Positions 26,325 to 43,731 of a stretch of DNA of 64,000 bases are shown one piece after another. Where the stretch lies: positions 713 through 64,712 of the forward strand of contig JAYPHU010000014.1 in the NCBI GenBank assembly GCA_038127535.1, written 5' to 3'. The stretch comes from Rhodospirillaceae bacterium. Lineage in GTDB: Bacteria; Pseudomonadota; Alphaproteobacteria; Rhodospirillales; UBA2165. The position numbers and the translations under genes were made by a program. The notes under the pieces are model-generated. The model did not search any database. It was not told the DNA's origin and worked only from the letters and a program-made list of their open reading frames with translations. The number at the start of each line of letters is the position of its first letter. Positions within the stretch are counted from its first letter, which is position 1.

Positions 26325-27923
26325 ATGGCTGAAGAACAAAACTTTGATTATGTGATTGTCGGCGGCGGTTCCGCCGGCTGCGTGCTCGCCAACCGGCTAA
26401 GCGAGGACACCAAGGTCTCCGTCTGCCTGCTGGAAGCCGGCGGGCCGGACAAGCACTGGCAAATTCATGTGCCGCTGGGCCTGATCTTCGGGATGGTCAA
26501 CGACAAGATCACCTGGAAGTTTCAAACCACACCGCAGGCCAAGGCGAATGACCGGCAAATATACATTCCGCGCGGCGGCGTGCTGGGCGGGTCCAGTTCC
26601 ATCAACGGGATGATGTATATCCGCGGCAATCCGAAAGACTATGACGATTGGGCGGCCGCGGGAAATGCGGGCTGGTCCTGGGACGAGGTCAAACCGTATT
26701 TCCTGAAATCCGAAAACAATGAACAGTATGCGGGCGACGGACATCACGCCGCCGGCGGGCCGCTGAATGTCACCTTCATTCGCGATCCAAACCCGACCAT
26801 CGACAGTTTCGTCGAGGCGGCAGAAAGCCTCCAGTATCGCGCCAATCATGACTTCAACGGCGACACCCAGGAAGGCTTCGGTCTCAGCCAGGTCACCCAG
26901 AAGAACGGCCGTCGCTGGTCCACCGCCAAGGCGTTCCTGGAGCCCGCTAAGAGCCGAAAGAACCTGACCGTAATCACCCATGCGCCGGTGGAGAAAGTGC
27001 TGATCGAAAACGGCCGGGCAATTGGCGTCAGCACTATCGGCGGCGTCATGACGGTCAGGGCGAACAAGGAAGTGGTGTTGTCCGCCGGCGCCATCATCTC
27101 GCCGAAAATCCTGCTGCAGTCGGGCATCGGCGACGGCGGCGAATTAAAAGAACTGGGCGTGGAGAGTGCCCACCACCTGCCCGGCGTCGGCAAGAACCTG
27201 CAGGACCACGCCGCCATATTGGTATCGACCAAGACCAAACACCGGACGCCGGCTGGGTTTTCTATTCCGGCGCTGCCCAAACATGCGATCTCCGTCCTGG
27301 ACTACCTGATCCACCGCCGCGGGCTCTGGTCCTCCAACATGGTAGAAGGCACCGGCTTCATCCGCACCCGGCCAGAACTTGACCGGCCGGATATCCAGTA
27401 CATCTGGACGCCCGGCTACCGCAGCCCGCCGCCGAAGATGATTGGCTATGGCCACGGCTATGCGCTGTCGACGGTGCTGCTGCATCCGAAAAGCAGGGGC
27501 TCGGTTGGCATCTCCAGCGCAAACGGCGCCGAAAAGCCGCTGATCAACCCGCAGTTCTTCTCGGAACAAGAAGACCTGGAGATTCTTCTCAAAGGAATGA
27601 AGGAATCCATCCGCATTCTGAAGGCCGACGCTTTTAAAAAGTACAAGCTGATCTCCAGCCGGCCCGACCTTGACGCAGACGATGACACCCTCCGGGACTT
27701 CGTCCTGGCCAACGCCGCCACCATCTTCCATCCCGTCGGCACCTGCAAAATGGGCAACGACGATACAGCCGTAGTGGATGAGAGATTGAAAGTGAGGGGG
27801 CTGGAGGGGTTGCGGGTCGCCGATGCCTCAATCATGCCCACCATCGTCAGCGGCAACACCAACGCGCCGACCATAATGATCGCGGAAAAATCCGCCGATA
27901 TGATCAAGCAGGACGCGGCCTAA
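26325..27923 (+). CDS. GMC family oxidoreductase (choline dehydrogenase-like)
   Basis: [56 protein letters not shown]. Confidence 0.93.
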
Positions 27924-27933
27924 GAAGAACGCC

Positions 27934-28695
27934 TCAGCCTGCGTCCGGCGGCGTCAGTTCCTTCCGCTTCCACCACAACAAATTGCCCTGTAGGAATGAC
28001 TGCGCGAGCTCGCTTTCCGGTTTATCGAAAAAGCTTTGCGCTGGCGATCGTTCGATCAGCCGACCCCGATACATAAACAGTACATCATCGGCCAGACGCC
28101 TGGCCTGGGCCATATCGTGGCTGGACATGATGACGGTCGTCCCCGACGCGCGGATCGCCTGGATAAACTCTTCAATCGCATGGGTGGCGGACGGGTCCAA
28201 CGCCGCCGTCGGCTCATCCAGGAATAGAACCTCGGGCTGGAGGGTCCAGGCCCGCGCCACGGAGAGACGCTGTTGCTCCCCGCCTGACAACCGACGTGCC
28301 GAAACCTTCGCCAGCCGCCGCAGCCCGGTGCGTTCCAGCATTTCTTCGATGCGGCTCACTCTCTCCGCCTTGTCGACGTTGCGCTGGCAGAGGGCGTGAT
28401 CCAGGTTGGCGTAGACCGAGCGGCGCAGCATCACCGGACGCTGGAACACCATGGCCTGATGGGGCTGGGGGTCTTCCGCCGCCGGCCCCTGCCAGGTCAC
28501 ACTGCCGGCCGTGGGCTCAATCAATCCATGACAAAGGCGCAATAGTAGGCTTTTCCCGGCCCCGTTCGGCCCGAGAACAAAACTCAACGAGCCCGCTTTA
28601 AACTCGGTACTCACATCTTTGATCAAACGGATGCCGTCGGCCTCGAACTCCACGCCCGAGAGCGAAAGGGGTAAAATGTTGGAGAGGCTAGCCAT
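27934..28695 (-). CDS. tupC: Tungstate ABC transporter ATP-binding protein
   Basis: GPNGAGKS, MVFQRPVMLRRSV, LSGGEQQR, LDEPTAALDP. It follows tupB. Confidence 0.8.
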   Translation of the reverse strand: MASLSNILPLSLSGVEFEADGIRLIKDVSTEFKAGSLSFVLGPNGAGKSLLLRLCHGLIEPTAGSVTWQGPAAEDPQPHQAMVFQRPVMLRRSVYANLDHALCQRNVDKAERVSRIEEMLERTGLRRLAKVSARRLSGGEQQRLSVARAWTLQPEVLFLDEPTAALDPSATHAIEEFIQAIRASGTTVIMSSHDMAQARRLADDVLFMYRGRLIERSPAQSFFDKPESELAQSFLQGNLLWWKRKELTPPDAG

Positions 28696-29392
28696 ATCGC
28701 TTGCTCGCCGATTCATTAATCAGGTAGGCGGCCGCGTTGACGCCCAGCGCCAGCACCAACAGCACGATGCCGAGGCCCAAAGCCAATGCCAGATCGCCCT
28801 TGCTGGTCTCAAGTGCGATAGCCGTAGTCATGACGCGAGTGACGTGATCGATATTGCCGCCGACGATCATCACCGCACCGACCTCCGCACTGGCCCGGCC
28901 GAAGCCCGCCAGCACCGTGGTGATCAGGCTGAACCGGTTGTCCCACAACAGGGTCGCAATAATCTGATCCGGTCCGGCGCCGAGGGAGCGCAAATGCTCC
29001 TCGTACTCCCGCCACAAATCTTCTGTGGTTTGGCGGGTCAGCGCCGCTACGATGGGGGTGATCAGGCAGACCTGGGCGATGATCATGGCGGTGGGTGTGA
29101 ATAGCAGGCCCAGCGTGCCCAAGGGTCCGGCGCGGGACAACAGTAGGTAAACAATAAGCCCGACCACCACCGGCGGCATGCCCATCATAGCGTTCAGCAA
29201 CACAACGATCACCGTCCGGCCGGGGAACTTAAAGACCGCCAAGGCCGCGCCCAAGGGTAGGCCGATCACGCAGGCGATCAGCACAGCGGTCAGGCTGACT
29301 TGCAGCGACAGTAGTACGATCTCGGCCAGACCGCTTTCCAAGGTGATGATCAGGCCCCAGGCGGCGGCAAATGCGTTCCCGATATCGGTCAT
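28688..29392 (-). CDS. tupB: Tungstate ABC transporter permease
   Basis: MGMPPVVVGLIVYLLLSRAGPLG, AEVGAVMIVGGNI, TRVMTTAIALETSKG. Confidence 0.88.
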   Translation of the reverse strand: MTDIGNAFAAAWGLIITLESGLAEIVLLSLQVSLTAVLIACVIGLPLGAALAVFKFPGRTVIVVLLNAMMGMPPVVVGLIVYLLLSRAGPLGTLGLLFTPTAMIIAQVCLITPIVAALTRQTTEDLWREYEEHLRSLGAGPDQIIATLLWDNRFSLITTVLAGFGRASAEVGAVMIVGGNIDHVTRVMTTAIALETSKGDLALALGLGIVLLVLALGVNAAAYLINESASKRYG

Positions 29393-29410
29393 AACAGTCC
29401 GTTCGTTGAC

Positions 29411-30169
29411 CTAGAATGCCTGGCTAAAGAAGAACACAGCGCCCGCCAGAATAACACCCTCTATCAGCAGGGTGTGCATTCGGACCGATGTGCGGCGCAA
29501 CAGCCAGCGCCCGACCACCGCGCCCGGCATGGTACAGAGCCCCAACATCAGCCCGATGACGATTAGCGGGAAGTTCAACAGGGGTGAGGCCCCGAAGACC
29601 ACGGTCTTGGTGGCGTTCAACACCACGCCCAACGCCGCCGTCATCGCCGCCAATTGCGCGCCTCTCAGTCCCGCACCCAAGAAAAACGGGGCCAGCATCA
29701 ACCCGGCGCCCATGGTCACCCCGCTGACAACGCCATAGGCCGGCCCGACGGCAACAAATCCCCAGGTGCCCATCTTGACGTCTTTCTTCTCCAAATACCG
29801 GCGACCCGGCACGGACACGGCCATGAACAGGCCCAACAGCAGGGCGATCGTGTCCGCCGGCAGATAGACGAAGATAAACGCGCCGGCGATCATGCCAGGA
29901 AAACTGGAAATCATCAGCGGCACATAGATGCCCCAGTGGATTTCCCGCCAGAACACATAAAGCCGGGTGATATTGCTGACCACGATCGCGACGGAGACCA
30001 CCGGCACCGCCACCTTGATCCCCAAAATCGGCGCGATGCAGATCAGCAACAGCAACGCGCCGGCAAAGCCTGAAAAACTGTGGAACACGGCGGTGGCGAA
30101 CGCCGCCACGGCCATCAGTAACAGCAGAGGGAAGGTAATGCCGATCTCGGCGAGGATGGAACTTAGCAT
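29411..30169 (-). CDS. Sulfite exporter TauE/SafE family protein
   Basis: About 8 TM segments with two repeated halves (SFSGFAGALLL, SGVTMGAGLMLAP). Confidence 0.8.
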   Translation of the reverse strand: MLSSILAEIGITFPLLLLMAVAAFATAVFHSFSGFAGALLLLICIAPILGIKVAVPVVSVAIVVSNITRLYVFWREIHWGIYVPLMISSFPGMIAGAFIFVYLPADTIALLLGLFMAVSVPGRRYLEKKDVKMGTWGFVAVGPAYGVVSGVTMGAGLMLAPFFLGAGLRGAQLAAMTAALGVVLNATKTVVFGASPLLNFPLIVIGLMLGLCTMPGAVVGRWLLRRTSVRMHTLLIEGVILAGAVFFFSQAF

Positions 30170-30365
30170 GATGGTGTTGGCATGATTTGAGGCCGGACCT
30201 TACAGGGAAAAACCGGCTCTGGTAAGCAATTTGGAACGGCTAAGGGGGGGGGTGTTGACGGGCCGGGGTCTGGCCATTAAACCTCCGAGTCATTACAATC
30301 TTCGCCAGTGAAATTAGGAGTCCGGTATGCACTTTGGCCGGGGCGAAATCTAGGAGAGAACCTGA

Positions 30366-31232
30366 ATGTCTGACACGAATATCGTACGCATCGCGCCGAA
30401 CAACCCAGTTTTCGATCTGCCGGTTTTGGTCGGTATTGAGGAAGGCCTGTTTGAAAAAGCCGGCTTGGATGTCGCCTTCGCCGCGTCCTATGACGACCGC
30501 GAAGCTGACAATGAAAAGATGGAATATCTCTCCCGCCTGAAGGAAAGCATGTTCGAAAAGGGCGACGCGGACAACTACAACGTCTGCGAATGGGCCACCA
30601 TCGACCGGATCGAACGCGGTTCCGGTGGCGGTCACATTGCCGCGCTGCGCGCAGCTGTCGGCGCCCAGGCCATTCTGACCTTTGACGACGCTCTGCAGAC
30701 CCCGCGGGACATGAAGGACGTGCCGGTCGCCGTTCAGGAATACACCGGTTCCCACTTCACCTGCATTCAGATGCTGGAAAGCGCCATCGGTTACGAGCAC
30801 ATCAACATCGTGCAGGGCCGTCTGCCGCAAAAGCGGTATGACGGACTCAAAAGCGGTGAATACCGCGCTGTCACCGTGATGGAGCCGTTCATCAGCTTAG
30901 GGTTAAAGGAAGGCGCTCACATCATCGCCTCGTCCTTCTATCGCGGCGGCGAAGTGATCGGTCCGAACCTCACGACCGAGCAGCGGGAAACCTTCTACGA
31001 AGCCGAGAATGCCGCCGTCGATATGATCAATGCGGACTTCTACAAGTATGCGCACTATCTGACCGACCGCACCAAGGGTGCATTGGAGCCGAACGAACTG
31101 CTCCGCGCCTTTGTCCACTACAAGCACGTGGATTACTACGCGGAAGACCTATTCAACCGCGCCTACGACTGGATGAAGGAACGCGACTTCACCGAAGGCC
31201 GAAGCGACCACAACAACATCGTGTTTGCGTAG
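30366..31232 (+). CDS. Periplasmic-binding-protein type II fold protein (NMT1/SsuA-like) lacking a signal peptide
   Basis: LPVLVGIEEGLFEKAGLDV, VAVQEYTGSHF, VTVMEPFIS. The N-terminus is polar, with a GGAGAG RBS. Confidence 0.7.
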   Translation: MSDTNIVRIAPNNPVFDLPVLVGIEEGLFEKAGLDVAFAASYDDREADNEKMEYLSRLKESMFEKGDADNYNVCEWATIDRIERGSGGGHIAALRAAVGAQAILTFDDALQTPRDMKDVPVAVQEYTGSHFTCIQMLESAIGYEHINIVQGRLPQKRYDGLKSGEYRAVTVMEPFISLGLKEGAHIIASSFYRGGEVIGPNLTTEQRETFYEAENAAVDMINADFYKYAHYLTDRTKGALEPNELLRAFVHYKHVDYYAEDLFNRAYDWMKERDFTEGRSDHNNIVFA

Positions 31233-31253
31233 AACGTCGTTTTAAGTTTGGAG

Positions 31254-31291
31254 AACGCGGGGGCGGCTCAGGCCGGCCCGCGTTTTTCTTT
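31254..31291 (+). terminator. Rho-independent terminator
   Basis: AACGCGGG...CCCGCGTT followed by TTTCTTT. Confidence 0.7.
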
Positions 31292-31441
31292 GACCCCGCC
31301 ACTTCTTCGTGCGTCGCCCCCGAGTTGCGCAGTAATTCTCGGGGGGTCATTAATCCTCGAGCAATAGGTACCCGAGACTTGGTTCCAACTAGCGTCGGCC
31401 CCAACTCGGGCATGGCGCATTAAAAGGCCGGATAGGGGGGA

Positions 31442-32422
31442 TCACCCCACCTTAAATATCCCGGCGGCCGTGTCGCCCAGGATCATGGCCTTTTCTCCGT
31501 CGGTCAGGTCAGCGTCCTCCACCACCTTGAGCGGGTTCGGATCGCCGATGGGGAACGGATAGTCGGAGCCCAGCATCAGCTTCTCCGCACCGACGACCGT
31601 CTTCAGGAAATTGAGCGCGTTGGGATCGAACAGCACTGTATCGAAATAGAGCCGCTTCAGCCCGTCCACCGGGTTCGCATAGTCGTGGCCCGGGATTTCG
31701 ATATTCCGGTTCAGCCGGCCCAGCATGTAAGGCAGTGCGCCGCCGCCGTGGGACAGGATGAACTTCATCCCCGGATACTTGATAAAGTGCCCGGAATACA
31801 AAAGCCGGGAAATGGCGATGGTGGTGTCCACGCCGCGCCCGACCGCGTTCATCATGCCGAAATCCAACAGGCGCGGATCACCGCAGCCGAACATGGGATG
31901 CAGATACAGGACGGCGCTCAAGGACGAGGCCGCTTCCCAGAACGGATCCAGATCCGGATCGTCCAGATTGCCGGAATCCCCGTGGGGCTGGGTGCCGATC
32001 ATGGCACCGGCAAATCCGGCGTTTAAAGCTTCTTCCAGCACCTCCGCCGCCAGCTTGCCGCTTTGCAGGGGCACCGTGGCGAGCGGCACCAAGGGATCAA
32101 TCCCGTCGGTGCCGGACATGAGATATTCGTTCAGAAACCGGCTCCAGGCCACGCCCTCTTCCGGCGGCAATTCATAGCCGAAACTGTCCATCCAGCCGCC
32201 GTTGATCTGATGGGTGATGCATTGATGATCCATCCATTCCAGCCGCTGATCCGTATCCCGCAGTTTCGGCGAAATGGGCCGGGTCGCCCGCCCACCGGTA
32301 AAGGCGAGCTGGTACTTGTCCCCGTCCGCCAGCAGTTCCACGTTGGGGAAGCGGCTGATTTCCTTTTGCAGGGCGTCGAGCATCGCCTGAGGGGTGAAAT
32401 GGGCGTGGGTATCAATGATCAT
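31442..32422 (-). CDS. Amidohydrolase-2 family protein (ACMSD-like decarboxylase/hydratase)
   Basis: IDTHAH, LYLHP, SHGGG, LGSDYPF. Confidence 0.9.
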   Translation of the reverse strand: MIIDTHAHFTPQAMLDALQKEISRFPNVELLADGDKYQLAFTGGRATRPISPKLRDTDQRLEWMDHQCITHQINGGWMDSFGYELPPEEGVAWSRFLNEYLMSGTDGIDPLVPLATVPLQSGKLAAEVLEEALNAGFAGAMIGTQPHGDSGNLDDPDLDPFWEAASSLSAVLYLHPMFGCGDPRLLDFGMMNAVGRGVDTTIAISRLLYSGHFIKYPGMKFILSHGGGALPYMLGRLNRNIEIPGHDYANPVDGLKRLYFDTVLFDPNALNFLKTVVGAEKLMLGSDYPFPIGDPNPLKVVEDADLTDGEKAMILGDTAAGIFKVG

Positions 32423-34821
32423 TTGTCGCGTCCTTCGTGTAACAGGGCTTCGATATCGGTCATGCGCATAGGCAGTTCTTCCAGGCTGAGACCCAGCGGA
32501 TAAAGCGCGTCATTGACGGCGCTGGCCATGGCGGCCGGCGCACCGAGATAGCCGCCTTCGCCCGACCCTTTCTGGCCGTGAGAGGTCAGCGGCGACGGTG
32601 TGCAGTGTTCCACATCCTTAACGTACGGCACCTCGAATGTCGACGGCATGACGTAGTCGACGAAAGTGCCACTCAGGAACTGGCCATCCTCGCCGTAGGC
32701 GAATTTCTCATAGAGCGCCGCGCCGATCCCGTGGGCCACACCGCCGATGATCATGCCCCGCACGATATCCGGGTTGATTACCGTGCCGCAGTCATGGCCG
32801 ATGAAATACTCATGGACGGTCACCTTGCCGGTGCCGGGATCGATCTCGACGAAGGGAATATGCGCCTGAAAGGAAAAACAGGGATAGAGCTGCACCCGGT
32901 TGTTTTCGTCCGGATATTCGCCGCCCAAGGGCACCTGCATCACATGCAGCGCCTGCAGGCCCGGCTCCATCCCGTCGGGCAACAGGTCATAGCGCCGGTG
33001 GGCGATGTTTACCAATTCGGCCCAGGTGAGTTTGCGGGACGGATCATTTCGGTCGGAAATATCGCCGTTGTTGTATTCAAGCTGCTCAATCGGCACCTGC
33101 AGGTTATGCGCCGCGATTTCGTGCAACTGTTTCTTCAGCTTATGCGCCGCACCGTCCGCCGCACCGCCCAGCATCACCGCCATCCGGCTTGCGACGGGGC
33201 TGCGAGTCGGCAGGCCGGCCAGGGTATCGGCGTGGATCACGCGGATGTCTTCCGGGTCCTTCTGAAATTCCTCACCCAGGATCGTGGCGACCAGGGTCTC
33301 ATGGCCTTGACCGGACGTGGTCGTGCCCATGGTGCCGATGATATTGCCGGTGCTATCGATCCGGACCTGACAGCCCTCCATGAAGGTGCTGATCTCCAGC
33401 TTCGGGTTCAGCAAGTATTCGAACATGTTGTTGCCGCCCGACGGCTCCAAACACGCGCCGATGCCGATCCCCGCCAGATTGCCGGCGGCGCGGATGTCAT
33501 CCCGGCGCTTCACCAGATTTTCGAAATCGGCCAGCTCCATGGTTTTTTCCAGCACCGTGTGATAGTCGCCGGAGTCATACTTGGTGCCCGTGGGATTGAG
33601 ATAGGGAAACTCGTCATGGCGGATAAAGTTCCTCTGACGCACCTCAAGCCGGTGCATTTTCAAATGCCGGGCCACCTTGTCTACGGCCAGCTCGATCATG
33701 AAGTTGGTCGGACCTTGGCCCATGCCGCGCACCGGCACCTGTCCTGTCTTGTTGGTACTGACCGAGATCGGGTGATAGTGGACGCTGTTGATCCGGTAGG
33801 GCCCGACCAGCGCGGCGATGGGCTTGCCGAGCTGGAACGGCCCCCGGCCCGGATAAGCCCCGCAATCATCGATGGCCTTGATCTTCATGGACTTGATGAC
33901 GCCGTCATTGGTGAAGGCCACATCGGTATAGAAAATTCGGTCGGGGCCGTGAGCGTCGCCACCGGACATGTTGGTCAGCCGGTCCTCGATAAAGCGCACC
34001 GGCACGCCGCCCAGTTTCTTCGACAGATAGGCCACCAGCACCGTGTGCTTGATGCCCCGTTTCACGCCGTAGCTACCGCCCACATCCACATCCTGGTGCA
34101 CGCGGACGCTGTTCAGCGGCAGACGCATGGCGTTGGCGATCTGCTCCTGATAGTTCGGCATTTGGATTGACGCCCAGACCTGCAGGCTTTCCGTTCCCCC
34201 GTCCCATTGGGCCATGGCGCCGAAGGTCTCAATCGGCACCGTGGACGACCGGCCCCAGCGCGCCCGGAACGACAGCACGTGGTCGGCGGCGGCGAAGTCC
34301 TCTTCGACCGGTCCCCAGACGAAATCCTTCTCCAGCACCAGGTTGGTGCCTTGATCCGGATGGACCAGCGGCGCATCGGGCTTCAGCGCTTCTTCCGGAT
34401 CGACCACGGGCTCCAGCGGCTCGTAGTATACCTCGATCAGCTCCACCGCATCTTCCGCCGTGTAGCGATCCTCGGCGACAACGGCGGCCACCCATTCCCC
34501 GGCGTAGCGGGTCAACTCATGGGCCAGCGGATACCAGCGCAGATTGGGCACGTCCGGGCCGTGGTAGAGCGGCGACGTATGCTCCGCCAGCTCATCCCCG
34601 GTCAAAACCGTCAGAACGCCGGGCACCGCCAGTGCGGCCTCCGCATTGATGGAGAGGATTTTGGCGCGCGGGTGGGGGCTCGCCAGGATCGCTACGTGTT
34701 TGGTGTCCTGCACCGCCACGTCCTGGATGTACTTGCCCTTGCCGGTGACGAAGCGTTTGTCTTCCTTCACCCGGCGCTTGCGGGCGACGTAATGATAATT
34801 GCTGCCTGCAGGTGCGCTCAT
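32419..34821 (-). CDS. Xanthine dehydrogenase family molybdopterin-binding subunit (second system)
   Basis: EDKRFVTGKG, VGGSYGVK, PVRGMG, SGQGH, KGSGEGG. Confidence 0.92.
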   Translation of the reverse strand: MSAPAGSNYHYVARKRRVKEDKRFVTGKGKYIQDVAVQDTKHVAILASPHPRAKILSINAEAALAVPGVLTVLTGDELAEHTSPLYHGPDVPNLRWYPLAHELTRYAGEWVAAVVAEDRYTAEDAVELIEVYYEPLEPVVDPEEALKPDAPLVHPDQGTNLVLEKDFVWGPVEEDFAAADHVLSFRARWGRSSTVPIETFGAMAQWDGGTESLQVWASIQMPNYQEQIANAMRLPLNSVRVHQDVDVGGSYGVKRGIKHTVLVAYLSKKLGGVPVRFIEDRLTNMSGGDAHGPDRIFYTDVAFTNDGVIKSMKIKAIDDCGAYPGRGPFQLGKPIAALVGPYRINSVHYHPISVSTNKTGQVPVRGMGQGPTNFMIELAVDKVARHLKMHRLEVRQRNFIRHDEFPYLNPTGTKYDSGDYHTVLEKTMELADFENLVKRRDDIRAAGNLAGIGIGACLEPSGGNNMFEYLLNPKLEISTFMEGCQVRIDSTGNIIGTMGTTTSGQGHETLVATILGEEFQKDPEDIRVIHADTLAGLPTRSPVASRMAVMLGGAADGAAHKLKKQLHEIAAHNLQVPIEQLEYNNGDISDRNDPSRKLTWAELVNIAHRRYDLLPDGMEPGLQALHVMQVPLGGEYPDENNRVQLYPCFSFQAHIPFVEIDPGTGKVTVHEYFIGHDCGTVINPDIVRGMIIGGVAHGIGAALYEKFAYGEDGQFLSGTFVDYVMPSTFEVPYVKDVEHCTPSPLTSHGQKGSGEGGYLGAPAAMASAVNDALYPLGLSLEELPMRMTDIEALLHEGRDK

Positions 34822-35303
34822 GTTCCCTGCTCCTTCATCCGCTCGGCGGCGAGCCGGATCGCGTCAATGATCTGGGTATAGCCGGTGCAGCGGCAGATGT
34901 TCCCGCCGATGGCTTCTCGGATATCCTCGTCGGTCGGCGACAAGGTTTCCTCCAGCAGCGCATGGGCCGACATCAACATGCCCGGCGTGCAATAGCCGCA
35001 CTGCATGCCATGGGCGTCCCGGAACGCATCCTGCAGAAGACCGGGCTCGCCATCTTCCTGGCAGAGGCCTTCCACGGTCTGGACCGTGTCGCCGTCTGCC
35101 TGCACCGCCAGCATCAGACACGACCGAATCGGCTCTCCGTTTACAATGACCGTGCAGGCGCCGCAGACGCCGTGTTCGCAGCCCATATGGGTGCCGGAAA
35201 GATGCAGCTCGTCCCGCAGGAAATCCAGCAGCGTCATGCGGGGTTCGGCGGGCGCAGTGGCGTCCTTGCCGTTGACGGTGAGAGAAATATCGCGCCGGCT
35301 CAT
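34818..35303 (-). CDS. (2Fe-2S)-binding small subunit
   Basis: GCEHGVCGAC...RSC, QCGYCTPG, CRCTGY. Confidence 0.94.
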   Translation of the reverse strand: MSRRDISLTVNGKDATAPAEPRMTLLDFLRDELHLSGTHMGCEHGVCGACTVIVNGEPIRSCLMLAVQADGDTVQTVEGLCQEDGEPGLLQDAFRDAHGMQCGYCTPGMLMSAHALLEETLSPTDEDIREAIGGNICRCTGYTQIIDAIRLAAERMKEQGT

Positions 35304-36184
35304 GACAGGCTACCTCCGGCATCAGCAACCGCATCCGCCAGCGCCCGGCCGATCAGCACCCGGGCCACCCGGCGGCGGTAATCCGCGCTGCCATGCAGGT
35401 CATCCGCCGGATCCATCTGGTCGCCGATCTCCGCGAGCGCCTCGTCAATCAGGCTTTCGCTCAGCGCATTGCCGGTGAGATTTTCTTCCGCGTCCCGCAG
35501 CCGCACCGGTGTGCCTGCCACTCCGCCAACCGCGATCGCTGCCTTTTGGCACACGCCGGTATCGTCCAAGAGGACCTGCGCACCGGCTGAAACCACAGCG
35601 AAATCACCATGCCGCTCGGCCACCTCGTGGAAGCCCGCGCCCGTGCGTCCTGCCTCCCGCCACACGGGAAAATTGATTTCGACCAGGATTTCATCTTCGT
35701 TCCGGTCGCTCATCATCGGGCCTTGGTAAAACGCATCCGCCGCGACGGGACGCGTACCGGTCACCGACTGTAGATTAATCTCCACCCCCAGCGCCACGGC
35801 CACCAGGGGAATCTCCGCCGCCGGGTCGCCATGGGCAATACTGCCGCCGACCGTTCCCCGGTTCCGGGTCTGGTGATGGCCGACCCAGGGCAACGCCTTG
35901 GCCAGCAAGGGCAGGTTCTCGGTGATGACGGCCGATTTCAACGCCGCCGTTTGCCGGGTCGCCGTCTTGATCCGCACCGCATCACCGGTCCCATCAACCC
36001 CGGCCCAATCTTCAATGCCGTTGATATCAATTAGCACAGACGGCCGCGCCAAACGCATGGCCAGCATGGGCACCAGGGTCTGGCCGCCGGCCAGGATCAT
36101 GCCGTCATCGCCGGCCTCGCTCAGCAACTGCAGTGCATGCTCCGCCGAGGTGGCGGCAATATGATCAAAGGGAGCGGCTTTCAT
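35300..36184 (-). CDS. FAD-binding medium subunit
   Basis: MKAAPFD, LAGGQTLVP, RNRGTVGGS, ERHGDFA. Confidence 0.93.
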   Translation of the reverse strand: MKAAPFDHIAATSAEHALQLLSEAGDDGMILAGGQTLVPMLAMRLARPSVLIDINGIEDWAGVDGTGDAVRIKTATRQTAALKSAVITENLPLLAKALPWVGHHQTRNRGTVGGSIAHGDPAAEIPLVAVALGVEINLQSVTGTRPVAADAFYQGPMMSDRNEDEILVEINFPVWREAGRTGAGFHEVAERHGDFAVVSAGAQVLLDDTGVCQKAAIAVGGVAGTPVRLRDAEENLTGNALSESLIDEALAEIGDQMDPADDLHGSADYRRRVARVLIGRALADAVADAGGSLS

Positions 36185-36208
36185 TCGACTGACACCAAGA
36201 CCGGACGC

Positions 36209-37858
36209 TTAGTCCTTGTCCCAGCCATCCTCGACCTGACGGACAGAGGTCTCTGGCGGGAAGTCTTTATCCTTCTGCTGGCGGGTCAGGGAAACTTCGC
36301 CGTTCTTCAGATAGTCGCCCTTGGCGGCGTTCTGCGCAGCGGTTTCCCAAATCTGATGCCAGTCACCGAGAGAATACCCGTGCCACGGGGATTCGGGCCG
36401 AAGCGCCGGCAGATCAAGTTTCTCCCACAGCGCCTTGCCTTTCTCCATGAACTCCTTTGTCGGCAGCGCCAGGGGCGGCATGTCGGACTTCATGGTCGCA
36501 TCTATCAAGAGCGTGCTGTCTTCCTCGCCGGTGTGCTCCCGCTTGGGTCCGTGTCCCTGGCCGCGGTGGGGAATGGTTTGCACATCTTCGATCGGGTTCA
36601 AGCGATAGGCCATGGCCCAGAGGATCGCGTCCGCGCTGTCCGGATCGATATCCTCGGTCACGGCGATGGTGATCTTGCCCATATCGCCCTTGTAGAAGGC
36701 CGCGCCGTTGAGCGCGCGCCAGACCTCTGTCTTGGGCACGCCTTTCTCCATCACAATGATGGTCACCCGCAGAAGCCCGGTCAGCGGTTCGTGCAGCGCC
36801 ACTTTTTTAACGCCGCGCACGTTCAGTTCCTTGGTCAGGTGATTGAGGAACAGGGGCTCGTAAGCCACCCGCTTGATCACACTGGATTCGGACGGAGTCA
36901 CCTGACTGATGTAGGACGGGATCACCGCGTCCTTGCGCATGGTGATCGCAGTGACCTCCATGGGCATGTTGAATTCTTCCAGAGCAACGTGGCCATGGGA
37001 TTCACCAAACGGCCCTTCCGGTTCCAGCACGGTTGGGTCAATGAGGCCTTCGATCACCACTTCGGATTCCGCCGGCACCATCAGATCGACAGACTTGGCG
37101 CGCACCATGTTGATGGGCTCGCCCGCCAGGCCGCCGGCCACGTCGACTTCATCCATGCCGATGGGCAGTTTCTGCGGGCCCATGAAGGCCACATAGGGCG
37201 GACAGCCAAGCACTATGGCGCAAGGCATTTTCTCGCCCTTGGCCTTATATTTCTGCCAGTGGAGATACCCGCCGGCGCCGCCGACGCGGGTCGCCATACG
37301 CACTACCAGCCGGTCCGGAGCCTTCAGCCCGCACCGGTACGTCCCCATATTGTGGACGCCGGTTTCCGGATCGGCGGTGACGATATTGGTGGCCGAAAGC
37401 GTCGGTGCGCTGTCGAAACCGGGCGTCGAGACGGGAATCGGCAGAGCGTCCAACCCTTTGCCTTCGCCTTGCAGATCGTCGCCTTCCCAAATTACGTCGT
37501 GGCAAGGTGCCGTGTTGACGATCCGGGGCGGGATCGGATTGGCGATGGCCTTTTGCCATTTCTCCGAAATCTCGTCGACCGAAGCATCCATGCCCACGCA
37601 ATAGACGCCGCGATTGCCCGCCATAGCGCCGACGGCCACCGGAATATCGTATTTCCGGCCCTTGGCGTTGACGATGTTGGTGAACAGGAAGGCCTTGCGG
37701 TCGTCTTCGGCGATACCGCCCCGGTACTGCCAGCGCACCAAGGAATGCATCTCGGAGTCCTTATCCACCGGCGTATCGATCTCATAAAGCAAATCGGCTT
37801 TTCTAAGCGCATCCAGATGCTGGTGCATGTCGCGATATTTATGACTGGTCGTACTCAA
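36209..37858 (-). CDS. UbiD family (prFMN-dependent) decarboxylase
   Basis: KAFLFTN, NMGTYR, AIVLGCPP, VPAESEVVIEG, EGPFGE, EDIDP, IDAT. Confidence 0.9.
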   Translation of the reverse strand: MSTTSHKYRDMHQHLDALRKADLLYEIDTPVDKDSEMHSLVRWQYRGGIAEDDRKAFLFTNIVNAKGRKYDIPVAVGAMAGNRGVYCVGMDASVDEISEKWQKAIANPIPPRIVNTAPCHDVIWEGDDLQGEGKGLDALPIPVSTPGFDSAPTLSATNIVTADPETGVHNMGTYRCGLKAPDRLVVRMATRVGGAGGYLHWQKYKAKGEKMPCAIVLGCPPYVAFMGPQKLPIGMDEVDVAGGLAGEPINMVRAKSVDLMVPAESEVVIEGLIDPTVLEPEGPFGESHGHVALEEFNMPMEVTAITMRKDAVIPSYISQVTPSESSVIKRVAYEPLFLNHLTKELNVRGVKKVALHEPLTGLLRVTIIVMEKGVPKTEVWRALNGAAFYKGDMGKITIAVTEDIDPDSADAILWAMAYRLNPIEDVQTIPHRGQGHGPKREHTGEEDSTLLIDATMKSDMPPLALPTKEFMEKGKALWEKLDLPALRPESPWHGYSLGDWHQIWETAAQNAAKGDYLKNGEVSLTRQQKDKDFPPETSVRQVEDGWDKD

Positions 37859-37957
37859 GACCTCTGCCCTCCCCAGGCTTAATTGCGGCTGTTTCGCCTA
37901 ATATGCCCGAGCATATCCGCTAGTTCCAGGCGTGAATTCCGCCAAATTCCGTCGGGG

Positions 37958-39013
37958 CTATACCTTGTCGAACCCGTAGAGCGCGCGGGCGTTGTCATCA
38001 AGAATCTTGTCGATCGCGGAAACGGCAATTTCCCCGTTTTCTCTCAATTTGCGCAACGCCTCAATCTCCGTCGAGGTATCATGGTGACCATAATCCGTGC
38101 CGACCACCAGATTATCCTCACCGGCCGACGCAATCACATAGGGTAGATCGTCGGTCACCTGGCAGGCCACGTAGACATTGTTGTCGGCCAAGATCGAGGG
38201 GCCGAATTCCTTGCCCGTTTTCTTGAAACGTAATTTCAGATCGTTGAGCACATAGGGAATCCACTGTGCGCTCACCTCGATAAATCCCCAACGGACTTTG
38301 GGAAATTTTTCTGACAGGCCTTCCAGAATGAGCGAATGCACGGTGCCGATCACCGGCAACTTAAATTTCGAGAAGCCGGCTTCATCCAGGAACATATCGT
38401 GGACGTCGTAGGAGCCGTTGCCAGCGTGATGACAAATGGCCAGATCAAATTCCTCCGCCAGCTCAAACAGCGGATAGAAATACGGATCGACCAACCGCCG
38501 GCCGTTCTCTAGGCCCCGCATGAATATCCCGCAGGCGCCGTTTTCCGTGGCGAATTGGATTTCTTCGCGCAGGCCTTCCATGCTCATCAGCGGCAGGACC
38601 GCGACCCAGCGCAGCCGGCCGTTACCGTGTTTCCAAATTTCGGCGAGCCAGCGGTTATAGGATCGGGTCATGGCCCGTTCCACCGCCGCCTTCTTGGTCA
38701 GCGGGCGCAGGAATAAGGTCGGATAGAGGACCTGCACATCGATCCCCAGCTCGTCCATATGATTGAGCCGTTCCTCGATATCGGCCATTTCCCGCGCGGT
38801 TTGGGTGGTGTTGTAGCCCAGGTTCTGATCCCGGGAATGCACCCGGTTGTCGATCAGCCAGTATTCCTTCATCTCCTTGCCGTGGAGACCCACATCCGTA
38901 TACCCCGAGGTTTGATTCACCATGCGCGGTCTCAGCGCCTCCTCGCCTGCTTCCATAAATTCCCAGGTGCGGGGGGATTCGATCACGTGTGCGTCTGAAT
39001 CGATTGAGCCCAT
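37958..39013 (-). CDS. Amidohydrolase-2 family protein
   Basis: IDSDAHV, GIDVQVLYPT, ICHH, FIEVSAQW, GTDYGH. Confidence 0.88.
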   Translation of the reverse strand: MGSIDSDAHVIESPRTWEFMEAGEEALRPRMVNQTSGYTDVGLHGKEMKEYWLIDNRVHSRDQNLGYNTTQTAREMADIEERLNHMDELGIDVQVLYPTLFLRPLTKKAAVERAMTRSYNRWLAEIWKHGNGRLRWVAVLPLMSMEGLREEIQFATENGACGIFMRGLENGRRLVDPYFYPLFELAEEFDLAICHHAGNGSYDVHDMFLDEAGFSKFKLPVIGTVHSLILEGLSEKFPKVRWGFIEVSAQWIPYVLNDLKLRFKKTGKEFGPSILADNNVYVACQVTDDLPYVIASAGEDNLVVGTDYGHHDTSTEIEALRKLRENGEIAVSAIDKILDDNARALYGFDKV

Positions 39014-39054
39014 TTGGCTGTCTCCCTGTTGGTCTGCGCCAATAATTTATGACG

Positions 39055-39082
39055 CGTTGATTTCAGAAAACTGTAATCAACG
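39055..39082. promoter_or_regulatory. Candidate operator inverted repeat in a divergent promoter
   Basis: CGTTGATTTCAG-AAAA-CTGTAATCAACG, with 11 of 12 positions paired. Confidence 0.45.
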
Positions 39083-39192
39083 GCTGGCGCGCCGTAAAGC
39101 ATACCGCGCCGGTCTTCGTGCCAGCCCCGTGCCTTGTCTTGTCCCTGGCATTCTTCTCCGGCTAAATGGATCGGTAATTAGGGGAGTTGCCC

Positions 39193-40179
39193 GTGCTGGG
39201 AATCGTCTATGCATTGCTGGCGGCCGCCAGCTTCGGCTTCAACAACGCCAGCGCCCGGCGCGGTGTTTTGACCGGCACCGCGCTGCAGGGTTTGGTGGTC
39301 AGCCTGCCCTTGGGAATGCTCATATTTGTTATCGGCGCGACCCTGACGGACGAATGGCCGGCCCTGGCCGAGATCAGTTTTACCGGCTACGGGCTGCTGG
39401 CCCTGGCAGGGTTCATGCATTTCGCCTTGGGACGCTATTTCAACATTCGGTCGCTGGCCGCCATCGGCTCCAACCTAGCCTCGCCCATCCAGCAGTTTCA
39501 GCTCCTCTTATCACTGACCCTGGCTATCGTCTTTCTGGGCGAGACTCTGACGCCCTTAAAAGTGCTGGGCATCCTCTTGATCGTCGCCGCCCCCATCTAT
39601 GTACTGCGCATGCGGCGCAAAGACAAAGAGACAACATCTGTCCAAAAAGTAGAAACCAAAGACGGCTTTAATCCGCGGATGGCGGAGGGATATTTCTGCG
39701 CCTCCATGGCGGCGCTGGGGTTCGGCAGCAGCACGGTGCTGATCAAAGCCGGCCTGGGCGAAACCAATCTGAGCTTCATCGGCGGCTTTGTGGCCTATTC
39801 CGCCGCCATGATCACCATCGCGCTGGTCCTGGCGATCCCCGCCCGCCTGTCGGAAGTGCGCACGACGAACAAAGAGTCCCTCAAGTGGTTTGTCTATTCC
39901 GGCATCGGCGTCGGCGTGTCCCAGATGTTCCGCTTCCTCGCCCTGGGCATTGCGCCGGTGACCATTGTCCAGCCGCTGAACAGCCTGTCGGTGATCTTCC
40001 GGATGATCTTCGGCTATTTCCTCAACCGGGAGCACGAGCGCTTCGACCGTTATGTGATCATTGGGATTTTTCTGTCGTTCTTCGGCGCGCTGTCCTTGGC
40101 GCTCTCCAGCGATGTCATCCTGGCGAATGTGGATCTGCCGCCCTGGCTGGCGGAGATCGTTGGCTGGACCTGGCCTTAA
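39193..40179 (+). CDS. DMT/EamA family transporter
   Basis: Two repeated ~5-TM halves, GETLTPLKVLGILLI. The likely start is GTG 39193 after GGGGAG. Confidence 0.85.
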   Translation: MLGIVYALLAAASFGFNNASARRGVLTGTALQGLVVSLPLGMLIFVIGATLTDEWPALAEISFTGYGLLALAGFMHFALGRYFNIRSLAAIGSNLASPIQQFQLLLSLTLAIVFLGETLTPLKVLGILLIVAAPIYVLRMRRKDKETTSVQKVETKDGFNPRMAEGYFCASMAALGFGSSTVLIKAGLGETNLSFIGGFVAYSAAMITIALVLAIPARLSEVRTTNKESLKWFVYSGIGVGVSQMFRFLALGIAPVTIVQPLNSLSVIFRMIFGYFLNREHERFDRYVIIGIFLSFFGALSLALSSDVILANVDLPPWLAEIVGWTWP

Positions 40180-40182
40180 GTA

Positions 40183-42312
40183 TTAGAACAGATTAAGCCA
40201 GATGATGGATTTCAGCTCCGGAAACCAAACACCCATCAGAGATTGAGGCCACGGAACGATCAACAGGACGTGGAACAAGAGGTAAGACACAATCCACATG
40301 GGTACGGCAATCGACAGGGTCATTTTCCAACTTTCGCCGCTGCCGAACCGCATATAGCCCACCAGGAAGACAAACATGGACGGCAGCAGGCCGATCACCC
40401 CGGCGACGGCGAAGAAGAACAGCAGCCAGCCGAAATACACGGCCGCCCGGCGGAGTATTTCCTGAACAGAGAGATCTCCGTAGTCAGCCTTAATGTCGAA
40501 GTGCACATCCTCGCCCTCGACCGCAAAGGCATCCACTTTGTTTTTCTCGCCTACGCCAGTGGCTGCAACCGCAGAAGCTTCGATCGGCTTCGGCACAACG
40601 AAGAACCGCAAGAACACAATCCCGCCGGCAAAAAGAATCCCCGCGATGCTCATCACCTGGGGCACCAAGCGCGCCGCCAGCTCCCAATCTGCGGAGACAT
40701 AAAAAATGACGGCAAACAGGGCGATCACCCCAAAGGTGAAGTATGTGTCCGGGTTCATCGCCTCCGGCCGGAAGCCCAGAGTCAGGCCTCTGGAGATGCC
40801 CTGTTTACGCCGCGCGATATAGCTGCGAATGATGGGGCTCAGCACGCCGTACAAGGTGATCGCGAAAACAATCATGACCCAGGGATGGAACTCACCTTCG
40901 CGGACAACCCAAAGCCACTCCCAGCCATAGCGCTCCACCGAGATGAACATGTAACGTTCGATCAGCCCACCAAGCACAAAGCCCAAGATCAGTGGCGGCC
41001 GCGGCCAATGCATCCGTTTCATGAGCCAGCCTACAAGACCAAACGCCAGCAGGGTAACAATATCACCCCAGGACTTGGCGCCTTGGAAGGCGCCGATATA
41101 GGTGATCGCCAAAACCACCGGCGCCAGGATACCGATCCGCACCAGGGCAATCTTGGCAAGCTGTCCGGCAAACAGGAAGCACGTGCCTGCCCCCAAAATA
41201 TTGGCGATCGCCACCGACCAGACCAGGGTGTAGGTGATATCGAGGCGTTTGTTGAGCATTTCCGGTCCCGGCACCAGCCCGTGGATGAGGAACGCGCCCA
41301 GGATCAGCGCCATGGAGGCAGAGCCCGGCACACCAAAGGCGATGGTCGGCAACAGCGCGCCGCCTTCCTTGGCGTTGTTGGAACTCTCAGACGCGATCAC
41401 GCCCCGTACATCGCCCTTGCCGAAAGTTTTACCTGAATCCTTGATCGTGCGGACGGCGTGACCATAGGCGATCCAGTCAATGACGGATGCACCGATCCCG
41501 GGCACGGCTCCCAGGCCCGCGCCGAGGGTGGAACAACGGAACATCAAGAATTTATTCCTGAATACGTCCTTTACGCCCTCCCACTGCGCCCAGCGGGAAC
41601 CCACATCGGAATTTCCGGCAATGGATTTTCGCGAAATGACCATGTCAGCGATTTCCGGCACGGCAAACAAACCAAGCGCGATCGGCACCACCGGAATGCC
41701 ATCCCAGAGATAGAGCGTATCGAAAGTCCAGCGGAAGGTGCCGGTCTGGGAATCCTCGCCGGTCATGGCCACCAACACGCCGATGCAGGCGGCAGCCAAG
41801 CCCTTTAGCGGCGTGCCGCCGCTGAGCACCGCCACCAGGGACAGACCGAAGATGCAGATGGCGAACAATTCGGGCGATGCAATATTCAGGATAATCGGCC
41901 GGATCACCGGCACGGCGAGGGCCAGCAGAAACGCACCATAGAGCCCGCCCAGTACGGAAGCCGTAAACGCTGCGCCGAAGGCCCGGCCGGCTTCGCCCTT
42001 TCGCGCCATGGGATATCCATCGAGGATCGTCGCGGCTGAGCCCACCGTCCCCGGCACGCCGAACAACACCGCCGGGATCGTATCGGAGGTCACAACCACC
42101 GCCTGTAGCCCCATGAGAAAGGCCAATGCGGTATAGGGGTCCATATTAAAGGTGAACGGCAACAGAAGTGACAGGCCGACAAGGCCGCCCAGGCCGGGGA
42201 TCACGCCCAGGATCAGCCCGAAGAACACTCCCAGCGCCAAAAAGGAGAGACGCAACGGATCGGCCAGATTTGCAGCCGCCGTGATGGCCATATCCAGCAT
42301 ACTTACTTCCAT
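40183..42312 (-). CDS. tctA: Tripartite tricarboxylate transporter TctA with a C-terminal TctB-like fusion
   Basis: IPGLGG, LFGVPGT, DGYPMARKG, ESSNNAKEGG, GVPGS, HGLVPGP, followed by about 200 aa of 4-TM TctB-like tail. Start is uncertain (42300-42339). Confidence 0.9.
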   Translation of the reverse strand: MEVSMLDMAITAAANLADPLRLSFLALGVFFGLILGVIPGLGGLVGLSLLLPFTFNMDPYTALAFLMGLQAVVVTSDTIPAVLFGVPGTVGSAATILDGYPMARKGEAGRAFGAAFTASVLGGLYGAFLLALAVPVIRPIILNIASPELFAICIFGLSLVAVLSGGTPLKGLAAACIGVLVAMTGEDSQTGTFRWTFDTLYLWDGIPVVPIALGLFAVPEIADMVISRKSIAGNSDVGSRWAQWEGVKDVFRNKFLMFRCSTLGAGLGAVPGIGASVIDWIAYGHAVRTIKDSGKTFGKGDVRGVIASESSNNAKEGGALLPTIAFGVPGSASMALILGAFLIHGLVPGPEMLNKRLDITYTLVWSVAIANILGAGTCFLFAGQLAKIALVRIGILAPVVLAITYIGAFQGAKSWGDIVTLLAFGLVGWLMKRMHWPRPPLILGFVLGGLIERYMFISVERYGWEWLWVVREGEFHPWVMIVFAITLYGVLSPIIRSYIARRKQGISRGLTLGFRPEAMNPDTYFTFGVIALFAVIFYVSADWELAARLVPQVMSIAGILFAGGIVFLRFFVVPKPIEASAVAATGVGEKNKVDAFAVEGEDVHFDIKADYGDLSVQEILRRAAVYFGWLLFFFAVAGVIGLLPSMFVFLVGYMRFGSGESWKMTLSIAVPMWIVSYLLFHVLLIVPWPQSLMGVWFPELKSIIWLNLF

Positions 42313-42609
42313 GCCCGGAAATTCTCCCTGTGTGGGCAATTCTCCTCGAAGAATTGCTGATGCCTACTTATTTATGAGCCAATGTGTAGCAGATTAATCT
42401 GCCCCAGTTCCATGAAAACTCTTCAATTTTTCGGGAAAATTGCTTAGAACACTTAGGAGTTTTGCCGCAGTCCTGATAGGATACCGGCGTTTTTAGCAAT
42501 ATGGCGGTATGCCGGAATGCAGGTTGTCGCCACAATTGCGGCACAATTTATCGGTTCAAATTTGTCGGAATGATCTCAATTTTCCCGGCAATGATCCAAA
42601 GGAGGTAAT

Positions 42610-43644: not shown

Positions 43645-43677
43645 GCCTGTACCGCTGACACAAGACTGAGTTAGAGA

Positions 43678-43713
43678 GCGGACGGGCGGCCATCGCCCGT
43701 CCGTTTCTCGTTT
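43678..43713 (+). terminator. Hairpin or terminator after tctC
   Basis: GCGGACGGGCG-N5-CGCCCGTCCGT followed by TTCTCGTTT. Confidence 0.65.
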
Positions 43714-43731
43714 CAGATCAGGGGAAGAACC

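Follow-up and report, generated by a model that had tools for sequence, protein, structure and literature searches.

Gene clusters that combine a UbiD decarboxylase with a molybdenum (Mo) hydroxylase are known for furans (hmf). In the hmf pathway, the UbiD-type enzyme HmfFG decarboxylates furandicarboxylate (FDCA), and the furoyl-CoA dehydrogenase HmfABC, a Mo enzyme, acts on furoyl-CoA and hydroxylates the ring, which makes an AMP-binding CoA ligase (furoyl-CoA synthetase) necessary. The picolinate (pic) pathway is described as employing a Mo hydroxylase (the dehydrogenase PicA) and then PicC, a 3,6-dihydroxypicolinate decarboxylase also placed in the ACMSD subfamily, on a hydroxylated heteroaromatic acid; it proceeds without a UbiD and needs the monooxygenase PicB and the dioxygenase PicD. 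For the degradation of lumazine and pterins, cluster I of Cupriavidus sp. LA-1 encodes LuDH, a two-subunit DHL isomerase (DHLI) of family PF04909, and a UbiD-type xanthine-8-carboxylate decarboxylase (XCDC) with UbiX, besides a deaminase and a GTP-binding metallochaperone (Doi, Maeda & Takaya 2025, PMC12391406). Here we analyzed six genes at positions 31442-39013 of a stretch of 64,000 nucleotides (the window) from contig JAYPHU010000014.1 of an uncultured Rhodospirillaceae bacterium (GCA_038127535.1), the genome of which is a 3.53-Mb metagenome-assembled genome estimated to be 98.7% complete. The locus is on balance probably an accessory catabolic operon of an estuarine/marine bacterium, in which a UbiD, a Mo hydroxylase, and an ACMSD-type decarboxylase would act on an aromatic, more likely N-heteroaromatic, di- or tricarboxylic acid.

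Six open reading frames (ORFs) run in the same direction on the minus strand in the order AH2a-UbiD-M-S-L-AH2b. AH2a (37958-39013, 351 aa) is an accessory first gene and encodes a protein of the PF04909 fold (Pfam Amidohydro_2, 68 bits). It is separated by 99 nt from the gene for a member of the long prenylated-FMN (prFMN) decarboxylase family (UbiD; 36209-37858, 549 aa, domains UbiD_N, UbiD, and UbiD_C), which belongs to a clade termed UbiD1. After a further 24 nt follow the three subunits of a Mo hydroxylase: the medium FAD subunit M (35300-36184; FAD_binding_5 and CO_deh_flav_C), the small subunit S with two [2Fe-2S] clusters (34818-35303; Fer2 and Fer2_2), and the large molybdopterin subunit L (32419-34821, 800 aa; Ald_Xan_dh_C and MoCoBD_1/2). 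The last gene, AH2b (31442-32422, 326 aa; Amidohydro_2, 113 bits), encodes a protein of the ACMSD subfamily. Overlaps of 4 nt at M/S, S/L, and L/AH2b tie four genes together at three junctions. The ORF coordinates and Pfam domains thus confirm the original prediction, made from the letters of the window, of six co-oriented genes, four of them with overlapping start and stop codons. Its statement that a CoA ligase is absent was borne out over the whole 86.6-kb contig (C14), on which no match to PF00501 (AMP-binding) was obtained, and the stated absence of a ring-cleavage dioxygenase agreed with the lack of any such domain among the neighboring genes scanned (23.4-58.6 kb). None of the six proteins reached the cut-off of an NCBIfam equivalog model. 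Near-identical sequence is present in estuary, marine, and biofilm metagenomes.

The catalytic motifs of UbiD are intact: NMGTYR at residues 170-175 matches N-x-G-x-Y-R, and EGPFGE at residues 281-286 matches E-x4-E. The protein extends about 90 residues beyond the Pfam UbiD_C domain. Its nearest solved relative in a PDB sequence search is HmfF (4.5e-38). UbiD is not of the ubiquinone type, as it stayed far below the cut-off of NF008175 (123 versus 788 bits), scored under that of TIGR00148 as well (198 versus 244.85 bits), and fell into a separate clade in the tree. In a tree of the long UbiD proteins, those linked to M, S, and L form a single clade with a support of 99; members of this clade without adjacent M-S-L genes are found at loci L012/L056, L014, L057, and L004. 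Because such same-clade proteins occur, the decarboxylase does not strictly depend on the hydroxylase. A UbiX-type gene is present elsewhere in the genome, as a 210-aa PF02441 ORF at position 36813 of contig C26, with 47% identity to UbiX of Sinorhizobium meliloti. Several other UbiD relatives were set aside. The plasmid-borne matches of Labrenzia and Paracoccus (about 27-30% identity) belong to O2-independent ubiquinone UbiD/UbiX pairs beside UbiT/U/V-like genes and are irrelevant here. The relative from Paraburkholderia (L017) lies next to UbiX and porin genes, and that from Burkholderiales (L004) next to a TRAP transporter and an FAA hydrolase; neither context gives a clue to the substrate.

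When L was compared with the PDB, the best matches were Mycobacterium CoxL (8uem, 3e-124), quinoline 2-oxidoreductase (Qor, 3e-107), and a Kdh-type enzyme (2e-92). In the alignment, L retains both catalytic residues, Glu within GSGEGG and Gln within ASIQMP. The active-site loop reads PVRGMGQ, the Cys loop AYRCSFR of aerobic CO dehydrogenase of form I (CODH) is not present, and CODH models remained below their cut-offs. Because Glu and Gln are kept and PVRGMGQ takes the place of the CODH Cys loop, L is assigned as a hydroxylase of organic substrates. Judged by its PDB matches and these residues, it is a CoxL/Qor-like Mo hydroxylase and not a CO dehydrogenase. The signature of an HmfA/Kdh clade named in the original prediction (GQGH, SGTFVDY) proved to be generic, CoxL and Qor ranking ahead of the Kdh-type enzyme. 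As a side observation, the 3.5-Mb genome contains 18 separate loci for large subunits of the XDH/CoxL family, an unusually large expansion.

AH2b matched ACMSD in the PDB search with 2.7e-38 at an identity of about 30%. In an alignment with the human and Pseudomonas fluorescens enzymes, the equivalents of His6, His8, Arg47, His174, His224, Arg235, and Asp291 were all found to be kept. This set comprises the four Zn ligands, the catalytic His, and the two substrate-binding Arg residues. The C-terminal loop of AH2b reads DYPFP, and the motif of the dinuclear oxygenases is not present. Because all catalytic and substrate-binding residues of ACMSD are kept, AH2b is assigned as a non-oxidative decarboxylase. 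By its residues it is a Zn-dependent member of the ACMSD subfamily, which at about 30% identity does not imply strict orthology to ACMSD. The predicted decarboxylase chemistry of a PicC-like amidohydrolase is thereby supported for the 3' gene, the product of which is of the ACMSD/PicC type by its residues.

The first gene told a different story from the one predicted. The top PDB sequence matches of AH2a were 8sm9, titled only "Amidohydrolase 2," and PtmU3, followed by TruffO, AibH2, and SfbO; the latter four are all dinuclear oxygenases of the amidohydrolase-related kind. The superfamily of amidohydrolase-related dinuclear oxygenases is marked by an N-terminal D-x-H and a C-terminal D-x-P-H-x-D/E loop, a signature reported to be absent from all characterized PF04909 hydrolases and decarboxylases; a census with the D-x-P-H-x-D/E filter yielded about 17,000 sequences (PMC13154177). 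A candidate ligand set was recognized in AH2a, comprising D7-A-H9, H196, E246, and D307-Y-G-H310-H-D312. The AH2a family counts 4356 homologues in total, 120 of which were used for residue counts. Across these 120, H196, E246, and the loop ligands D307, H310, and D312 are invariant, and the N-terminal D-x-H site reads DAH in 118. An AlphaFold (AF2) model of AH2a with a mean predicted local distance difference test score (pLDDT) of 90.8 gave PtmU3 as the best fold match (TM-score 0.79), followed by DitZ (0.76), AibH (0.73-0.75), ACMSD (0.68-0.72), and IDCase (0.64-0.69). AH2a thus shares with PtmU3, SfbO, AibH2, and DitZ the D-x-H, His, Glu, and C-terminal Asp/His/Asp loop, and its fold is closest to PtmU3. 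Because the set of seven ligands is present and PtmU3 fits the model best, AH2a is read as an oxygenase rather than a hydrolase or decarboxylase. From its residues and its model, it is most likely a Gly-variant candidate for a two-metal (Fe/Mn) oxygenase and neither a decarboxylase nor a ring-opening hydrolase. The proposal that the 5' amidohydrolase is a second decarboxylase was abandoned on these grounds. For the same reason, the oxygenase ligand set and the PtmU3-like model leave no basis for the "hydrolytic ring opening" that had been envisaged as possible, nor for calling the operon "oxygenase-free." The published D-x-P-H-x-D/E filter would miss the large D-Y-G-H-x-D branch to which AH2a belongs.

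The arrangement of the operon recurs elsewhere. The genes UbiD-M-S-L-AH2b stand in the same order at locus L010 (a metagenome contig), at locus L054, and in the genomes G069, G135, G114, and G023, with identities of 67-81%; listed by locus, the orthologous five-gene core within that range is that of L010, L044-L047, and L054. In genome G003, some 3 kb separate M-S-L-AH2b from a downstream UbiD of equal orientation, and at L002 and L055 UbiD-M-S-L occurs without AH2b. Orthologues of UbiD (at least 67% identity) and of L were found in the identical 7 of 151 genomes of the order. Orthologues of AH2b are present in six of these seven; the seventh genome is 82% complete, and its module genes are on separate short contigs. 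Wherever contig ends do not interfere, the genes are neighbors in every carrier. A naive estimate puts the chance of two 7-genome sets coinciding in 151 at about 3e-12, a figure to be read with the caveat that the genomes are not independent. The module is patchily distributed within genera, G114 carrying it and four congeners lacking it. Because congeners of carriers are often without it, the module is regarded as an accessory, functionally coupled unit. Orthologues of AH2a were confined to contig L010 and the sister genome G069, and the six-gene form is therefore seen as a local elaboration; members of the AH2a family are also found in unrelated contexts elsewhere. Thus, the conserved gene order that had been expected was observed for a core of five genes and not for all six, AH2a being limited to this genus and one contig. 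The operon is genuine, and its arrangement is beyond chance, as the core recurs elsewhere and the profiles in the 151 genomes coincide.

UbiD has thousands of metagenomic homologues with at least 70% identity, and carriers hold up to three paralogues of the long UbiD. The genome itself contains a second long-UbiD module on contig C5 (112452-124207, L051) with UbiD3, a TctAB paralogue, UbiD2 with a solitary Mo large subunit immediately after it, and an NMT1_2-like protein. On L010, a module of this C5 type stands directly beside the main operon, so that three UbiD paralogues follow one another in a row. A more distant version occurs on rhizobial megaplasmids; there, UbiD (56% identity) is accompanied by two large subunits, M, S, CoxG, a binding-fold protein, UbiX, and genes of the tripartite tricarboxylate transporter (TTT) type. 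The surroundings of the core differ from locus to locus. On L010 (1-2884), AllF/AllG-like and carbamate-kinase genes of oxamate/oxalurate metabolism lie directly upstream of the UbiD/Mo supercluster. Upstream of UbiD-M-S-L on L055 (308-9661) lie an ABC importer of the BMP type and two cytosine-deaminase-like amidohydrolases. Downstream of the operon, three to four paralogous cupins of about 185 aa are arrayed on L054 (16371-19283) and L055 (15474-18361). The neighbors on L054 and L055 may hint at an aminated N-heterocycle as substrate and at a ring-cleavage step in those organisms. The cupin, thiamine pyrophosphate (TPP), and luciferase-like neighbors of L054 and L055 were rejected as further pathway members here, having no close orthologues beside the operon of the window.

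From the enzyme families and the context, we infer the following order of steps for the five-gene core. The acid would be imported, probably through the adjacent TTT system, which consists of a fused TctA/TctB permease (40183-42339, minus strand; TctA 419 bits plus TctB) and a solute receptor of the TctC family (42610-43644, plus strand; Pfam TctC, 1.6e-8). This TctAB/TctC system is likely the uptake system for the pathway substrate; TctAB paralogues or orthologues adjoin related long-UbiD modules on C5 and at L016, L018, L048, and L049. The 549-aa prFMN-dependent UbiD would then strip one carboxylate from the ring, with cofactor supplied by the UbiX encoded elsewhere in the genome. The three-subunit Mo hydroxylase would introduce a hydroxyl or oxo group, with oxygen taken from water, at a ring carbon that is poor in electrons, and the ACMSD-type Zn decarboxylase would remove a second carboxylate, activated by the new hydroxyl or oxo group or by a ring-opened enol. 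In this genus, AH2a in front of the core probably adds an O2-dependent hydroxylation or another oxidative step. Of the predicted pair of decarboxylase chemistries around one hydroxylase, the part resting on the UbiD motifs and the AH2b residues stood, and the part that counted AH2a as a second amidohydrolase decarboxylase fell. Naming the substrate as a pyridine, pyrazine, or furan, as the prediction had done, amounts to a guess.

Several observations weigh against this scheme. UbiD proteins of the same clade with 71-75% identity lack neighboring M-S-L genes (L012/L056, L014, and L057). The loop of AH2a reads D-Y-G-H-x-D, with Gly in place of the published Pro, and the same holds for 119 of the 120 homologues, the remaining one giving no match. 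The margin of the AH2a TM-scores over the decarboxylases is modest. No Rieske domain or obvious reductase gene was found near AH2a among the neighbors scanned; a Rieske ferredoxin/reductase partner gene is common, although not universal, for amidohydrolase-related dinuclear oxygenases. AH2a thus differs from the characterized dinuclear oxygenases in its Gly loop and its lack of a Rieske neighbor, and identity to them is about 20%. The TTT genes stand outside the operon: the EamA gene on the opposite strand separates TctAB from it, and TctC is divergent from TctAB. All sequencing runs that matched the locus were DNA metagenomes, and none was RNA. Finally, AH2b could use a ring-opened, ACMS-like intermediate, and the ring-cleavage enzyme needed for this is not encoded at the locus.

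It is possible, although we consider it unlikely, that one of the pyridine mono- or dicarboxylates in particular (quinolinate, isocinchomeronate, dipicolinate, or picolinate) serves as substrate and undergoes alpha-decarboxylation, hydroxylation beside the ring nitrogen, and PicC-like decarboxylation. This chemistry would suit all three core enzymes. L is Qor-like, a transporter for di- or tricarboxylates is adjacent, and AH2b belongs to the ACMSD subfamily, to which PicC is assigned as well. The pic pathway offers the same succession of a Mo hydroxylase and an ACMSD-subfamily decarboxylase, the latter with a hydroxylated heteroaromatic acid as its substrate. However, the locus contains neither a PicB-type monooxygenase nor a 2,5-dihydroxypyridine dioxygenase, and among genes of the maleamate pathway only an isochorismatase-family gene on the other strand could be named. 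Domains of dioxygenases or multicomponent monooxygenases were altogether absent from the neighboring genes scanned. Moreover, literature searches returned no UbiD-based pathway for pyridine dicarboxylates.

We regard it as rather doubtful that AH2b works as a genuine enzyme of the ACMSD kind on a ring-opened intermediate of the 2-amino- or 2-hydroxy-3-carboxymuconate type, with ring cleavage encoded elsewhere and the operon representing only part of a pathway. The conservation of both substrate-binding Arg residues of ACMSD in AH2b is consistent with this idea, as are the cupin arrays directly downstream of the operons on L054 and L055, whose size suggests small ring-cleavage dioxygenases. At the locus in the window, however, a cupin or dioxygenase gene is missing, and the best cupin homologues in the genome share only 35-43% identity and are encoded 6 kb or more away from the window. 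AH2b resembles ACMSD in its Zn ligands, its catalytic His, and both substrate-binding Arg residues. It differs in the low identity of about 30% and in a context without 3-hydroxyanthranilate dioxygenase or downstream genes of the kynurenine pathway.

An hmf-type furan pathway, in which the UbiD would decarboxylate FDCA and the Mo enzyme hydroxylate the furan ring, is very unlikely. The locus does resemble hmf in that a UbiD and a CoxLMS-like Mo hydroxylase occur together; among solved structures HmfF is nearest to UbiD, and a GMC oxidoreductase of the HmfH family is encoded 8 kb away (26325-27923). Yet the match to HmfF is no closer than that to the lumazine UbiD, and a paralogue on contig C4 is nearer to HmfF (1e-53) and lies beside an AMP-ligase and a Mo subunit. 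HmfABC acts on furoyl-CoA, whereas the contig is devoid of an AMP-binding CoA ligase, and the GMC gene is not kept near the core in other genomes. The locus also differs from hmf in having no adjacent UbiX, and hmf clusters in turn lack the ACMSD-type decarboxylase and dinuclear-oxygenase-like genes of the operon. The C4 region (26658-31891, L024), where an AMP-binding ligase, a Mo large subunit, and a 552-aa UbiD are adjacent, is a better hmf-like candidate within the same genome than the operon of the window.

A divergent pathway from lumazine or pterins to xanthine was likewise considered, in which the Mo enzyme would be LuDH, the two amidohydrolases DHLI alpha and beta, and UbiD the xanthine-8-carboxylate decarboxylase. 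On paper, the families match: a three-subunit Mo enzyme of the XOR family, two PF04909 proteins, and a prFMN-dependent UbiD share one catabolic cluster (PMC12391406), and both systems would follow the same logic of water-derived hydroxylation and non-oxidative decarboxylation. The BMP-type importer and two cytosine-deaminase-like genes upstream on L055 and the oxamate/carbamate genes upstream on L010 might be read in the same direction. For the comparison, we used the rhizobial cluster L031 on pSymB of S. meliloti (CP140921.1, 1568840-1581899), which matches the published description (PMC12391406) and contains DHLI alpha/beta, UbiD, UbiX, an NCS2 permease, a GTPase, LuDH L/S/M, GntR, and a CDA-like gene. 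Its tandem amidohydrolases are 72% identical to each other, and the beta subunit starts with MIIDTHLHPT (His6/His8). Identities of the window proteins to L031 were low for UbiD (28%), L (29%), and M (27%) and reached 51% for S. Neither AH2a nor AH2b gave a BLAST match to either DHLI subunit or to one another, and a whole-genome search retrieved no homologue of DHL isomerase or of the CDA-like deaminase. Homologues of the GTPase occur only on contigs C4, C16, and C2, and UbiX is on C26, so that none is encoded at the operon locus. In addition, a single replicon of S. meliloti LMB1 (NZ_CP141213.1) encodes a UbiD of the lumazine type as well as a long-UbiD/Mo module, which argues that the two are distinct systems. 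The UbiD of the window is about 90 aa longer than its LA-1 counterpart, its PF04909 proteins are an ACMSD-type decarboxylase and a dinuclear-oxygenase-like protein, and no component is orthologous. Membership in a lumazine cluster was therefore rejected on the basis of the low identities and the absence of a DHLI pair and of a deaminase homologue, and we deem a divergent pathway of this kind highly improbable. As the original prediction had anticipated, an exact match to a described pathway was not found; the lumazine cluster, the sole one compared by sequence, fails in every defining feature.

That the genes are adjacent merely by chance or recent rearrangement and have no joint function is scarcely credible. 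AH2a, the 288-aa binding-fold protein encoded next to the operon, and some UbiD1 members do occur in unrelated contexts elsewhere, but three 4-nt overlaps join four genes, the order of the core recurs in six genomes from two families of the order as well as on another two metagenome contigs, and the profiles of 7, 7, and 6 out of 151 (not independent) genomes coincide.

The genes around the operon were also inspected. AH2a is transcribed divergently from a gene for a permease of the EamA/DMT family (39187-40179, plus strand; Pfam EamA), which is possibly linked to the operon. The intergenic region between them (39014-39186) is presumed to hold the promoter on account of its position only; a scan for promoter and terminator consensus sequences yielded no signal beyond that of shuffled sequence. 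AH2a and EamA are divergent on L010, too, where the EamA orthologue has 63% identity. A 401-aa ORF at 42556-43761 on the minus strand is rich in Arg and Gly, gave no matches, and was dismissed as a spurious frame antisense to the TctC gene. After TctC, an isochorismatase-family ORF (43732-44433) runs past the stop of a minus-strand gene for an FAD/NAD(P)-binding protein (44430-45863). On the other side, convergent with the operon, a 288-aa protein of uncertain membership is encoded at 30366-31232 (plus strand). It has no signal peptide and appears to be a cytoplasmic protein of the SsuA/THI5 fold. Neither Pfam nor a PDB sequence search gave a match, and its AF2 model (pLDDT 84.6) showed the fold of SsuA/TauA/THI5 binding proteins (TM-score to SsuA 0.72-0.74). 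The family comprises 2836 homologues, the best 120 of them with about 70% identity or more, which are usually monocistronic and in unrelated contexts. An orthologue with 86% identity adjoins the cluster on L010. An obligatory role of this protein in the pathway was rejected as unproven, as its orthologues stand alone in unrelated contexts.

Literature searches yielded no described pathway with the gene composition of this operon. The module constitutes a third lineage of UbiD/Mo-hydroxylase systems after hmf (furans) and the pteridines (2025), unrelated to them by descent and common in estuarine and marine metagenomes. A more far-reaching proposal, which we put forward tentatively and as a speculation with little prospect of proving right in full, is that of an undescribed, widespread marine and soil route of "decarboxylative hydroxylation." UbiD would expose a ring carbon in an N-heteroaromatic polycarboxylate that is abundant in nature, and the Mo hydroxylase, tightly coupled to it and perhaps in physical contact, would oxidize this carbon at once with water and without O2. 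The Zn decarboxylase would finish the sequence, and this genus would have recruited an unrecognized Gly-variant branch of the dinuclear oxygenases with several thousand members. AH2a itself suggests that the dinuclear-oxygenase superfamily exceeds the extent implied by the published motif filter. With the substrate identified, a large set of proteins that are annotated as "CoxL-like" or "UbiD family" in marine heterotrophs would receive a function, and the turnover of one class of aromatic carboxylates or of dissolved organic nitrogen could come to light.

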